From positions 64,001 through 128,000 of the IMG/VR virus record IMGVR_UViG_3300023202_000336: 64,000 nucleotides of DNA; one strand, written 5' to 3'. A model generated the notes under the pieces. That model was given only the letters and a program-made list of their open reading frames with translations, did no database searches and was not told where the DNA came from. This document shows positions 43,668 through 47,496 of the stretch, one piece after another (within the stretch, counting starts at the first letter, position 1; the number at the start of each line of letters is the position of its first letter). The position numbers were made by a program, and so were the translations under genes. The stretch comes from a virus.

Positions 43668-43712
43668 CGAGGGTCGGCCGGTGATTTCTGGATGTTCGGT
43701 CGGCCCTCGTTT
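43668..43712 (+). terminator. Terminator-like hairpin overlapping the first bases of the repeat-like leader
   Basis: CGAGGGTCGGCCG / CGGTCGGCCCTCG then TTT. Confidence 0.55.
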
Positions 43713-43799
43713 ATGCTCGCTCAGGAGCTTTGTATCTGAGACTCGGGCGAAATCCGTCGAGGCCCCGTATCTGAGACGCATCTGATATCGGAGCCTCGT
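43707..43799 (+). CRISPR. Degenerate mini-array in the cas12 leader: one full variant repeat, a 17-nt spacer, a 3'-half repeat and a loop fragment
   Basis: TCGTTTATGCTCGCTCAGGAGCTTTGTATCTGAGAC (43707-43742); AGGCCCCGTATCTGAGAC (43760-43777); GAGCCTCGT near 43791. Confidence 0.75.
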
Positions 43800-43824
43800 C
43801 CCACCAACCGCTAAGGAGAACGAG

Positions 43825-45549
43825 ATGCAAAGAGGACGCGATCCAGCGAATATTTACAGCTTCGCTGCATACGTATACCGCGAGGATTACGAGCGGACCG
43901 GCGATATACTGTTCAATGCGAACCGGTTCGGAAACGCGCTTGTCGCGATCGAACTCCACCGTCGCGAAGAGTGCGAGAAAATACTTCGACAGTGCTCGAA
44001 GGATTACACGGACGCGCGCGCCAAGGAAGACGCGCTCGTCGACCACCTTCAAGCGATCGGCAAGGAGCTGGGTCGATATCGCCAAAAGAAGCGTGAAAAG
44101 AAGACGCCGAAGGAGCTCCGTGAAAAGTACACGGAGGTCGAAGGGCAACTCGAGAAGCATCGAAACAGCGTGGTGCTTCCGATCCGCCGGGAGCTCTACA
44201 GGAGCCCCAAAGTCAAGAAGCTCCTGAAGAAGCTACATGAGAAGGTAACCGCGGATAAAAAAGAAGCGCGGGCCAACAGGAACTGTTACTGGGGGACGGG
44301 TGGTCTCGTGGAGAAGGCCCACGAGAATGACGGAGAAGGGCCGCCTCCGTCATTCAAGCGATTCGACGGAACCGGTCGAATCGGTGTGCAGCTCCAACAG
44401 CAGTCAGGAGCTCCTCCGTGGACCCCGGAGCGGCTCACGAGAGAGAACACTCTCCTGATGCTCGATGTGGACCAGATGCCCGATGATTTCGTCGGCGCCG
44501 ATCTGAACACAAGGTACAAGAAAAGTCAGAAGAAACGCTGTCCGGTCCGTATGAGGATCGGTTCGGAGAAAGCCAAGCCGGTGTGGCTCGACTTCATGGT
44601 CAAGTTCCATCGACCGCTTCCAGAAGGCTGCAAGATCAAAGCAGCCTGGATCCTTTTCAAAAAGGTCGGGACGCATACGAAAACGTATTTTCAAACGCAA
44701 GTGGCGCGTCCCGAGGGGTTCATGAGAGACGACGTCGCCGATGGCGGCCATGTCGCGGTCGATCTTGGCTGGAGAAAGTTCGAGGACGACCGGGTCCGCG
44801 TCGCCTACTGGCTCGGAGATGATGGAGAACAGGGTGAGATCGCTCTCGATCCGGAGCTCCTGAGCCGAGACCGGAAGAACCGGTCACTCCAGTCGATCTA
44901 CGATCGACAGTTCGACTCCATGAAGGAGCTCCTCCATGGCTGGATCACCGAGCACAAGAGTTCGGTTCCGGAGTGGCTGAAGGAGGAGACGAAGACCCTG
45001 CCGATCTGGAGATCGAGGTCCCGCTTGGCAAAGGTCATCATCAAGTGGAGGAAACACCAGTTCGACGGCGACGTCGAACTGTATAAAACCGCCGAAAAGT
45101 GGCGGAAGAAGGACAAGCACCTCTTCGACTGGCACAAGTTCCAGGCGAGGATCATCAGGGAAAAGCGGAAGGCGCTTTTCCGAGAGGAAGCGGCAAAGCT
45201 CGCGAGGCGTTATCGCTGCGTCATATTCGAAGATATGAAGATCAGCGATATGGCCAAGGACTCACCGGTGAGCAGCGATGACATGGATCCAATCAAGGAT
45301 ATCATGAAACTCGCGTCGCCAGGGGAGCTTCGAATGGAGTTCGAGAGTCGATTCCGAGACTCCACCAGACAGAAGACGAAGAACACGACGAGAGAATGTT
45401 CGGAGTGCGGTTTCGTTGACGGAGAGTTCGACTTCGTGAATCTGTACCACGAATGCCCGAACTGTCAGGCGGAGAAGGATCAAGATCTCAACGCCTGCGA
45501 GAACCTCCTCGCACGAGAGTTGGGGCCACCAGACGCTTCGGCCGCTTGA
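43825..45549 (+). CDS. cas12m: Type V CRISPR effector, Cas12m (V-U1)-like, 574 aa
   Basis: RFDGTGRIGVQLQQQSGAPPWTP, CYWGT and V(R)MRIG..W matching the remembered Cas12m pattern; RuvC-I VAVDLGWR (D313), RuvC-II IFED (E469), CSEC/CPNC zinc finger, DQDLNA (D554); adjacent array. Confidence 0.8.
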   Translation: MQRGRDPANIYSFAAYVYREDYERTGDILFNANRFGNALVAIELHRREECEKILRQCSKDYTDARAKEDALVDHLQAIGKELGRYRQKKREKKTPKELREKYTEVEGQLEKHRNSVVLPIRRELYRSPKVKKLLKKLHEKVTADKKEARANRNCYWGTGGLVEKAHENDGEGPPPSFKRFDGTGRIGVQLQQQSGAPPWTPERLTRENTLLMLDVDQMPDDFVGADLNTRYKKSQKKRCPVRMRIGSEKAKPVWLDFMVKFHRPLPEGCKIKAAWILFKKVGTHTKTYFQTQVARPEGFMRDDVADGGHVAVDLGWRKFEDDRVRVAYWLGDDGEQGEIALDPELLSRDRKNRSLQSIYDRQFDSMKELLHGWITEHKSSVPEWLKEETKTLPIWRSRSRLAKVIIKWRKHQFDGDVELYKTAEKWRKKDKHLFDWHKFQARIIREKRKALFREEAAKLARRYRCVIFEDMKISDMAKDSPVSSDDMDPIKDIMKLASPGELRMEFESRFRDSTRQKTKNTTRECSECGFVDGEFDFVNLYHECPNCQAEKDQDLNACENLLARELGPPDASAA

Positions 45550-45556
45550 GAATGTT

Positions 45557-45606
45557 TTCGAGCGGCTACGTCGTCGATAAGATGACGTAGTCGCTCGAAG
45601 TCTTTT
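45557..45606 (+). terminator. Terminator between effector and array leader
   Basis: 19-bp stem with G-U pairs, GATAA loop, then GTCTTTT. Confidence 0.75.
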
Positions 45607-45645
45607 ATGCGATATTGTTTATATATAAAAATTTTGACAGTACTG
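45607..45645 (+). promoter_or_regulatory. AT-rich CRISPR leader/promoter
   Basis: GATATTGTTTATATATAAAAATTTTGACAG in a GC-rich context. Confidence 0.65.
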
Positions 45646-46229
45646 TTAGATATGCCCGCTCAGAGGCTTCGTATCTGAGACGAGGCGCGTGATCTCGAAC
45701 TCCTGGAGTATCCGCGTCGCTTATGCCCGCTCAGAGGCTTCGTATCTGAGACTGGGGCCTGCCAAACCACGCCCGCTTATGCCCGCTCAGAGGCTTCGTA
45801 TCTGAGACAGCGCTAGGTGAAGGCTGGCGGGGATGCCACGACCGTTTATGCCCGCTCAGAGGCTTCGTATCTGAGACGGATCGTTTTGGTGGTATCCCGC
45901 TTATGCCCGCTCAGAGGCTTCGTATCTGAGACGCCAATCCATCCAGGTACCCGCTGATGCCCGCTCAGAGGCTTCGTATCTGAGACTAGGCGCGTGATCT
46001 CGAACTCCTGGAGTATCCGCGCCGCTTATGCCCGCTCAGAGGCTTCGTATCTGAGACCCGCCTCGAGCACCCGTTTCGGGGGCGTTGATATCCCGCTTAT
46101 GCCCGCTCAGAGGCTTCGTATCTGAGACGACCACGCCTGCCGTCTCCGCGAACTCGGCTTCGCCCGCTGATGCCCGCTCAGAGGCTTCGTATCTGAGACG
46201 CCAATCCATCAAAGCCTCGTACCTGAGAC
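45646..46229 (+). CRISPR. CRISPR array: 9 repeats of 36 nt (CCGCTTATGCCCGCTCAGAGGCTTCGTATCTGAGAC) plus a terminal half-repeat; spacers 35,20,33,19,18,35,35,35,(11) nt
   Basis: Parsed by hand; CTCAGA/TCTGAG hairpin near the 3' end followed by AC, as in Cas12m-type repeats. Confidence 0.95.
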
Positions 46230-46248
46230 ACCAACCAAGGAGAAAACC

Positions 46249-46809
46249 ATGCGTTTAGTCTGTGTTCTACTTTTCGTGTTCGGCCTCTGTGCCGAAGAAA
46301 CCTCCAAACTCCCCAGCACCGCCCAGCGTCTCGTCGATCGCCACGATCACGCGCTGGCCGAACTGCGTGAGCGATACCTCGCCGACGTCGCCGACTTGCG
46401 CGAAGACGTCACCCACGACCTCGAGCGGGAACTCAAGAAGACGACCCGTCGCGGCGACCTGGAAGGGGCCCTCGCGATCAAGGAGAAGATCACCGCGCTC
46501 AAGGAGCAAGAGGAGGCGATCGCTGAAGCGCCGACCGATTTCCTCGGACGTAAGAGGCAACCTGAATTCGTCGGAAACACCTACCGATACAGCTCATGGT
46601 GGGTTCGCTTTGATAAGGACGGGTCGGTGAAGACAAACTGGACTTCCCGCGACCTGAGAGACGGTGAATGGAGGATGGAAGGCGAAGAGATCGTCCTCGA
46701 ATTCAACGGGGAAGAGCACGTGAACCGCGCCTTCATCAACGAGGATGGAGATCTGGATTTTAACGGGGCGCAGCTGTTCCGCCTCGAGGAGAAGGACGAG
46801 GACGAATGA
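46249..46809 (+). CDS. Secreted-type protein, paralog A1 (signal peptide, coiled coil, variable C-terminus)
   Basis: SD AAGGAG; hydrophobic N-terminus; KKTTRRGDLEGALAIKEKI. Confidence 0.75.
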   Translation: MRLVCVLLFVFGLCAEETSKLPSTAQRLVDRHDHALAELRERYLADVADLREDVTHDLERELKKTTRRGDLEGALAIKEKITALKEQEEAIAEAPTDFLGRKRQPEFVGNTYRYSSWWVRFDKDGSVKTNWTSRDLRDGEWRMEGEEIVLEFNGEEHVNRAFINEDGDLDFNGAQLFRLEEKDEDE

Positions 46810-47496
46810 TCCTGATCCTGGATCAGTCGCCAGGAAAGGCGGCGAAGGCATACGCAGACAACGACCTCGTGGAGGAAGAACCGTGCGAATTCTGATGGCT
46901 ACGCTATTCTTGTTGCCGACCCTCTCCCTGTCCTCCGAGGAGGAGCAGGACCCGATGCCCGCGTCTGCCAAACGGACCGTGGCCCAGCACGATCGCGAGG
47001 TGCAGCGCCTCAAAGAACGCTACCTGTCCGACCTCGCCGAAATCCGCGAAGACACCCTTCGCGACCTCGAGCGTGACATGGAAAAGACGACCCGTCGCGG
47101 CGACCTCGAAGGGGCCCTTGCGATCAAGGAGAAGATCACTGCGCTCGAGGAGCAAGAAGAAGAGATCGCTGAGGCACCGACGGATTTCCTCGGGAACGCG
47201 AAGAAGCCGTTTTTTGCTGGTAGAACTTTTAACCATGTGCGCGGTGGTGGTTACCATATCGCATTTTCGGAGGATGGAACGTTGACGACGACGAACTGGG
47301 GCCACAGGTACAACGTCGGCGAATGGACCTTTGAGGACGGAACTATCCACATGGTTTTCGAGAACGGCGGTAACCCACATGAAGCAGAGGTAGATCCAGA
47401 AAACCAGAGGCTCACCTTCATGAACGGTGACGTTTACGTGATCTCGGAAGACAAATGATCCTGATCCTGGATCAGTCGCCAGGAAAGGCGGCGAAG
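46805..47496. repeat. Perfect 43-bp direct repeat (46805-46847 and 47454-47496), equal to the start of gene 47455
   Basis: AATGATCCTGATCCTGGATCAGTCGCCAGGAAAGGCGGCGAAG seen twice. Confidence 0.95.
46883..47458 (+). CDS. Secreted-type protein, paralog A2
   Basis: GTG start after GGAGG; near-identical coiled-coil block to A1, divergent C-terminus. Confidence 0.75.
   Translation: MRILMATLFLLPTLSLSSEEEQDPMPASAKRTVAQHDREVQRLKERYLSDLAEIREDTLRDLERDMEKTTRRGDLEGALAIKEKITALEEQEEEIAEAPTDFLGNAKKPFFAGRTFNHVRGGGYHIAFSEDGTLTTTNWGHRYNVGEWTFEDGTIHMVFENGGNPHEAEVDPENQRLTFMNGDVYVISEDK

Follow-up and report, generated by a model that had tools for sequence, protein, structure and literature searches.

Cas12m orthologues that carry D-E-D, H-D-D, or N-D-D triads bind dsDNA in a PAM-dependent manner and do not cut it (Bigelyte et al., PMC11013384). 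Binding of dsDNA without cutting by Cas12m, irrespective of the guide, is also reported in a 2026 preprint (10.64898/2026.03.26.714355). Four D-E-D orthologues showed no dsDNA nuclease activity (PMC11013384); it has been speculated that the D-E-D clades of Cas12m might hydrolyse DNA (PMC10442227). The crRNA of Cas12m has a length of 50-60 nt, and 18 bp are read in the heteroduplex (PMC11013384). In Cas12m2, the scaffold is 36 nt and the heteroduplex 17 bp (Omura et al., PMC10442227). The mature crRNA of PmCas12m consists of approximately 33 nt of the repeat and approximately 17 nt of the guide: the pre-crRNA is cut by PmCas12m after repeat nt 2-3 and at guide nt 17-18, the optimum guide length is 17 nt, and the efficiency drops above 20 nt (10.64898/2026.03.26.714355). 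The two helices of the PmCas12m scaffold are formed between positions -28 to -26 and -17 to -15, and between -23 to -20 and -6 to -3 (10.64898/2026.03.26.714355).

The window analyzed here is a stretch of 64,000 nt (positions 64,001 to 128,000 of IMG/VR record IMGVR_UViG_3300023202_000336). It lies within a complete phage genome of 180,134 bp, which has terminal repeats and a CheckV completeness of 100. Downstream of a cas12m gene, the window contains a CRISPR array in which spacers of 33-35 nt are mixed with spacers of 18-20 nt. Truncated guides uncouple binding from cutting in Cas9 and Cas12a. The preliminary description had accordingly proposed one effector with two outputs, in which the 33-35-nt guides license cleavage of competing elements and the 18-20-nt guides bind and repress host genes; deletion through recombination between repeats was given as the alternative. 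This interpretation is partly supported by the present analysis: the recombination alternative gains from it, whereas the division into cutting and repressing guides does not.

The cas12m gene and the type V-M assignment

The cas12m gene (P0001; 43825-45549, + strand) encodes a protein of 574 aa. The RuvC triad of this protein is D-E-D, a TNB domain of the zinc-finger type is located at the C-terminus, and two CxxC pairs are present in the translation. Residues 43-563 match the Cas12m of PDB 23vw with an E value of 6e-47, with the D, E, and D motifs aligned. The match to Cas12m2 (PDB 8hhl) has an E value of 1.3e-24, and Cas12f1-like_TNB is matched in Pfam (9.3e-7). A near-identical Cas12m (570/574 residues, four differences) is found in a sister strain, on a 2931-bp JGI contig from another sample, and two contigs from two sources encode the identical P0001 protein. 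It should be mentioned that the scans of genome collections leave out near-identical records.

Just past the stop codon of cas12m, a 20-bp hairpin followed by a T-run forms a strong terminator-like element (45556-45600, + strand). Next to it is the AT-rich leader of the array (45601-45645, + strand). The array itself is located directly 3' of cas12m in the same orientation, and this layout is shared with 19 other viral Cas12m loci. Cas1 and Cas2 were searched for in the complete 180-kb phage genome and are absent, whereas the positive controls were detected. Since the effector, the repeat architecture, the layout, and the missing adaptation module agree, the locus is, on the grounds of its sequence, a type V-M CRISPR-Cas system. 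The array is genuine and belongs to the phage's own Cas12m.

Organization of the array

The array (45646-46199, + strand) consists of nine direct repeats of 36 nt and eight spacers. Repeats 1-5 are at 45646-45681, 45717-45752, 45773-45808, 45842-45877, and 45897-45932, and repeats 6-9 at 45951-45986, 46022-46057, 46093-46128, and 46164-46199 (all on the + strand). The spacing from start to start is 71, 56, 69, 55, 54, 71, 71, and 71 nt. The spacers are 35 nt (S1, 45682-45716), 20 nt (S2, 45753-45772), 33 nt (S3, 45809-45841), 19 nt (S4, 45878-45896), 18 nt (S5, 45933-45950), 35 nt (S6, 45987-46021), 35 nt (S7, 46058-46092), and 35 nt (S8, 46129-46163) in length. These values, taken from the repeat coordinates, are exactly those given in the preliminary description. 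A 30-nt core is the same in 9/9 copies of the repeat; a chance origin was considered and rejected, as nine identical 30-mers cannot arise by chance. The 5' boundary of the repeat is fuzzy by about 1 nt, and a 36-nt repeat, which fits the family, was assumed. An extra C is found upstream in 5/8 repeat copies; if the repeat is taken as 37 nt, the short spacers become 17-19 nt.

S6 is a copy of S1. The two spacers differ only in the first base (T for G), as had been noted before, so that 34/35 nt match overall and 17/18 in the first 18. The base following the last position of S1 and S6 also differs (C for T) and is counted here as part of the repeat. Beyond repeat 9, there is a decayed terminal unit (46200-46229, + strand) of 11 nt and a 5'-truncated, diverged repeat. 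The 11 nt on the 3' side of repeat 9 (46200-46210) are identical to the first 11 nt of S5. This identity had also been pointed out earlier, and it is confirmed here with the restriction that the edge of the half repeat depends on the boundary. In the alignment, the partial repeat corresponds to repeat positions 15-36 and begins 9 nt past repeat 9; the division into 11 nt and a half repeat shifts slightly with the choice of the boundary.

Pairing is possible between the 3' end of S5 (CAGGTAC) and a GTATCTG in the 3' half of the repeat before it (45922-45950). The resulting 7-bp hairpin is an alternative that would compete with the handle stem, and it may be due to chance.

On the downstream side, an RBS and an ORF (46230-46809, + strand; ORF 46249-46809) encoding 186 aa with a signal-peptide-like N-terminus begin 20 nt past the partial repeat of the array. 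There is no terminator-like site on the + strand between 45601 and 47000, and therefore transcripts of the array probably read into this ORF. The two ORFs after the array (46249-47458; 186 and 237 aa) are paralogues of each other, with signal-peptide-like starts and weak matches to DUF7934.

Fold of the repeat and its solitary copies

The array repeat can form the two PmCas12m-type helices in the same register, with pairing of positions 9-11/20-22 and 14-17/31-34. In 9/9 array repeats, pairing is possible at 9-11/20-22 and 14-19/29-34. No Rfam family matches the array repeat.

Outside the array, approximately 18 solitary copies of the repeat core are found genome-wide, all on the + strand and with 0-8 mismatches; just one of them is identical to the array repeat. 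They are mostly located before or between phage genes. Those within the window are at 43713, 48648, 55378, and 55960. After several solitary repeats, the 3' end of the repeat is present once more as an 11-nt copy (GTATCTGARAC). Two "alleles" of the repeat can be distinguished: the array has C11/G20, whereas most solitary copies have T11/A20 together with a change of A19 to G. Thus, the 11-20 pair is C-G in 9/9 array repeats and T-A in 11/18 solitary copies. This switch is compensatory and lends support to the pseudoknot helix of the scaffold. The handles of Cas12m that are scattered over the phage's own transcripts seem to be the more unusual feature of this genome.

Comparison with other viral Cas12m arrays

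The array was compared with 20 viral Cas12m loci from IMG/VR plus Virus Rctr197k, which provided 125 non-redundant spacers. Wherever an array was found in these loci, it was just downstream of cas12m. The repeat length is 36-37 nt, with GAC or AAC as the last three bases, and most spacers are 34-41 nt. Spacers shorter than 30 nt account for 8/125; their lengths are 13-29 nt, and most of them are found amid decayed trailer repeats. One locus (L008) has a single 13-nt spacer between perfect repeats. The share of short spacers in the present array, 3/8, is in excess of that in the comparators (Fisher p = 0.019). Moreover, the short spacers here are atypical in that they have perfect repeats on either side, occupy the middle of the array, and are all 18-20 nt.

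A 22-repeat Cas12m array (L020 = L021; 6106-7662) contains two exact spacer duplications. The duplicates are five units apart (7=12 and 14=19), and the intervening spacers are unduplicated; the spacing of S1 and S6 is also five units. In phage Cas12m arrays, short spacers and duplicated spacers are known to occur as a minor feature. In Virus Rctr197k (KX853510; L001:2204-5686), the deposited annotation "similar to transposase" belongs to a homologue of Cas12m (30% identity, E value of 5e-60). This homologue is followed by an annotated CRISPR array, the trailer of which has variant repeats and shorter intervals.

Scans with the repeat pattern gave an unrelated 87-kb phage as the sole match. This match is a hairpin cluster with a loop word, no Cas12m is present in the fragment, and it was set aside. 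In this phage (IMGVR_UViG_3300027832_000009; L003:1230-2030 = L002, L004, L005), approximately 11 hairpins share the loop word GAGGCYTCGTATCTG, and their stems co-vary. The intervals in this hairpin cluster are 22-38 nt and similar to each other, and a 10-nt tandem repeat is present in the middle of the cluster.

Duplication and remodelling of the array

Repeat-like units are also found in the leader of cas12m (43707-43777, + strand): a solitary repeat variant (43707-43742), 14 nt, and a 5'-truncated repeat (approximately 43753-43777). The partial repeat corresponds to repeat positions 10-36, and its score was reached by 0/2000 shuffles. The region of the cas12m leader (43700-43830) and the array tail (46157-46254) are paralogous modules, as the alignment extends past the repeat. 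The leader module has the order of repeat, 14 nt, partial repeat, and then a CCAACC...AAGGAGAA...ATG leader; the tail module has the order of repeat, 11 nt, partial repeat, and a similar RBS leader. The word AATCCRTC precedes the partial repeat in both of them. In the alignment of leader and tail, 7/8 anchored positions match (p ~4e-4, by hand count). Because these modules align, the word shared by S5 and the tail is part of a duplicated module, rather than an independently acquired spacer.

The repeated spacers keep their order in both halves of the array: S1...S5, followed by S1'...S5'. This double order may have resulted from unequal crossing-over or from the fusion of two array variants. 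As the genome is without an integrase, recombination at the repeats is the sole in-house way for the array to change. S2, S4, and S5 would then be truncations of 35-mers that were once longer. Most likely, the mixed spacer lengths record reshuffling of the array, and not a second mode of action. With respect to the alternative raised in the preliminary description, remodelling fits better in view of the S1/S6, S5/tail, and leader/tail copies and of the missing cas1 and cas2; truncation of the short spacers is the presumed, rather than the directly visible, part of it. If the short spacers were neutral scars, random deletion would predict a spread of lengths, whereas all three are 18-20 nt.

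Several other origins of the short spacers were considered and rejected. Short spacers as decayed fragments of the repeat gave p >= 0.48 against shuffles. A motif shared among them, or derivation from the long spacers, gave p >= 0.03, uncorrected over 21 pairs. The pair of 7-mers shared by S2 and S8 is compositional. No paralogues of the short spacers were found after the solitary handles.

Search for targets

In the phage's own 180-kb genome, no protospacer was found above chance with blastn-short for any of the spacers (best, 13/13 or 17/19). The observation that no convincing protospacer is present in the window thus holds for the entire genome. The comparison of the array with GenBank phages and plasmids gave matches at the chance level, except for one repeat-like match, which led to Rctr197k. 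Exact 20-22-mers of S1/S6, S7, S8, S3, and S2 had 0 matches in IMG/VR. Among 185,579 prokaryote genomes, the first 22 nt of S8 had one match (23/23, then 5/12), which is inside a mazG-like gene of the uncultured bacterium NR2_7_metabat (L027:1501-1535; G002:C361).

This mazG gene was rejected as the target of S8. The flank is CAA, which is not a YTN-type PAM; the remaining spacers match that bacterial genome only at the chance level; and the mazG orthologues in the relatives match no better. In addition, in 101 related GC-rich genomes, the genes that contain exact 20-mers of S1 are unrelated and have an R-D-L-E-L coding word in common. Since 20-mers of S1 occur in unrelated genes, approximately one chance match per 22-mer is estimated across the collection. 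A spacer search of the kind suggested in the preliminary description, covering the phage genome, phages, plasmids, and, with S8, prokaryote genomes, gave no target above chance.

Proposed mechanism

On balance, we favor the explanation that this is an ordinary phage type V-M array, remodelled by duplication and by loss of the 3' part of spacers, and that all of its units would be equivalent guides for binding only, as judged from the related systems. Each repeat would fold into the Cas12m scaffold, as is expected from the family. Cas12m would cut the transcript near the 5' ends of the repeats and approximately 17-18 nt into each spacer, and this processing would yield crRNAs of roughly 50-56 nt. 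The crRNAs would direct PAM-dependent binding to dsDNA, by which transcription or replication would be blocked while the DNA stays uncut. Of each spacer, the first 17-18 nt alone would be used; the spacers of 18-20 nt would do the same job as those of 33-35 nt, and the extra 15 nt of a 35-nt spacer would be removed or left unused.

The length of the 35-nt spacers would have been set by a Cas1-Cas2 integrase, and these spacers were probably inherited or acquired in trans. In a genome without adaptation genes, later changes would have occurred by recombination between repeats, with S6 produced from S1, the tail copy from S5, and the tail module from the leader module. In addition, some spacers would have lost their dispensable 3' half. 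Truncations that keep at least 17-18 nt would persist, because they would be without cost.

The short spacers have the length of the mature guide. This means that spacer length would carry no functional switch, which is simpler than a model with two outputs. The array may be regarded as a natural example of how a CRISPR array evolves when its virus carries no integrase, through duplication and trimming to the functional minimum. It also suggests that type V-M does not require the spacer bases past nt 18 in vivo.

Alternative explanations

Because Cas12m pairs or retains just 17-18 nt, spacers of 18-20 nt are full guides and not shortened ones. From what is known of the family, it is not plausible that length switches the enzyme between cutting and binding. 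P0001 keeps the D-E-D triad, for which hydrolysis has been speculated (PMC10442227), but the four D-E-D orthologues assayed had no dsDNA nuclease activity (PMC11013384), 17-18 nt of the guide are paired or retained in the three Cas12m that have been solved or assayed, with no known role for nt 19-35, and no host target was found. Long guides for cleavage and short guides for repression, as proposed in the preliminary description, are thus very unlikely with an effector that is a Cas12m, of a family that is not known to cut, whose tested members bind without cutting and have a guide of 17-18 nt. It might also be supposed that the array is not used for targeting: the repeats would be docking or cutting sites at which Cas12m processes polycistronic RNA, or would titrate Cas12m, and the spacers would be filler. 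The handles scattered genome-wide in transcripts on the coding strand are in line with this, as is the terminator-free run of the array into ORF 46249 behind a partial repeat, in the same manner as in the cas12m leader. A target is not detectable for any of the spacers; however, with metagenomic phages it is usual for targets to be missing. The length of five spacers is the canonical 33-35 nt of all related arrays, which indicates that these spacers were made by an integrase, and the nine array repeats are identical, whereas the solitary copies have 0-8 mismatches. A non-targeting array is therefore judged improbable, though not to the same degree as the two outputs. The least credible case is an artefact of assembly, or a chimeric consensus into which array variants were collapsed. 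Arrays are hard to assemble from short reads, and a strain with a Cas12m differing at 4/574 residues exists in another sample. However, each short spacer has a unique sequence and is flanked by full repeats, whereas a collapse would drop whole units and not parts of unique spacers. Furthermore, the genome is closed, as its contig has terminal repeats, and the identical protein was found on two contigs from two sources.

Two further explanations assign a meaning to the short length itself. The 54-56-nt units might have been copied from processed crRNAs, or have arisen in another process by which the guide protected by Cas12m is measured. They would re-enter the array by recombination at the repeats, and the guide size of their spacers would be due to the mechanism itself and not to selection acting on random deletions. 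We know of no CRISPR system with such a mechanism, which counts against it, and the other short intervals in the phage genome (9-15 nt) and the short spacers of the comparators (13-29 nt) argue against a general ruler. The agreement in length is nevertheless close: the short spacers of 18-20 nt (17-19 nt with a 37-nt repeat) match the 17-18-nt cut and the 17-bp duplex (10.64898/2026.03.26.714355; PMC10442227), they sit between perfect repeats, and, by our own arithmetic, the probability that 3/3 fall in a 3-nt window under uniform truncation is approximately 6e-4. Such a ruler seems doubtful. The short units might otherwise be dedicated regulatory guides in the manner of CreR, tracr-L, or scaRNA, which would steer Cas12m to host or phage promoters or to cas12m itself, and the long spacers would be ordinary guides against competitors; the two would then differ in their targets, not in cutting or binding. 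The word of S5 is seen again in the array tail; in the form AATCCRTC, it is also present in the cas12m leader, beside a partial repeat. The approximately 18 + strand solitary repeats before or between genes indicate that the phage uses the handle beyond the array, the short spacers are grouped at the minimum length for function, and regulatory mini-arrays are widespread (PMC10120712). However, full or seed-anchored matches of S2, S4, and S5 in the 180-kb genome are at the chance level, and no significant motif is common to the short spacers, or is shared with the sequences after other handles. We regard this regulatory role as unlikely, if less so than the ruler. In broader terms, the short spacers may be guide-sized by mechanism or by strong selection, having been kept or regenerated from processed crRNAs, and at least one of them, S5, may take part in Cas12m-based control of phage or host genes. 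We consider this possibility, too, unlikely. If the clustering at 18-20 nt is due to a ruler or to a regulatory role, it would tie into the wider use of Cas12m handles by this phage.

Comparison with known systems

In type V-K CAST, a nuclease-dead type V effector is served by a normal array and by an atypical unit with a spacer of approximately 17 nt for a second task. This atypical unit is delocalised and its repeat has diverged; it serves transposon homing by targeting a tRNA gene, whereas the short units of the present locus are inside the array. Repeat-like units beside a cas leader, short spacer-like segments, and the use of the effector for repression are features of CreR/CreA, tracr-L, and scaRNA (PMC10120712) that the present locus resembles. 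The repeat-like units in question are the repeat and partial repeat in the cas12m leader. Those RNAs act via partial (approximately 11-nt) complementarity to a known promoter, whereas no complementary site above chance was found genome-wide in the phage. A further difference is that the effector here, by analogy with its family, would be non-cutting in any case.

The phage Cas12m arrays of IMG/VR and Rctr197k are similar to the present array in the order of cas12m and then the array, in the repeats of 36-37 nt, and in the degenerate trailer repeats. The main difference is in the short spacers, which are 3/8 and between perfect repeats here and 8/125, mostly amid decayed repeats, in those arrays. 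Compared with the described type V-M systems (MmCas12m/Cas12m2, GoCas12m, and PmCas12m), the carrier here is a lytic-type 180-kb phage and not a plasmid or a prophage; 3/8 spacers are guide-sized, spacers are duplicated, and solitary repeats occur genome-wide. In the other respects compared, the locus agrees with them: the homology of the effector extends along the entire protein, the 36-nt repeat has the same pair of helices, the array is directly downstream, adaptation genes are missing, and the carrier is a mobile element. By analogy with these systems, the expected output would be silencing based on binding with a 17-18-nt guide.
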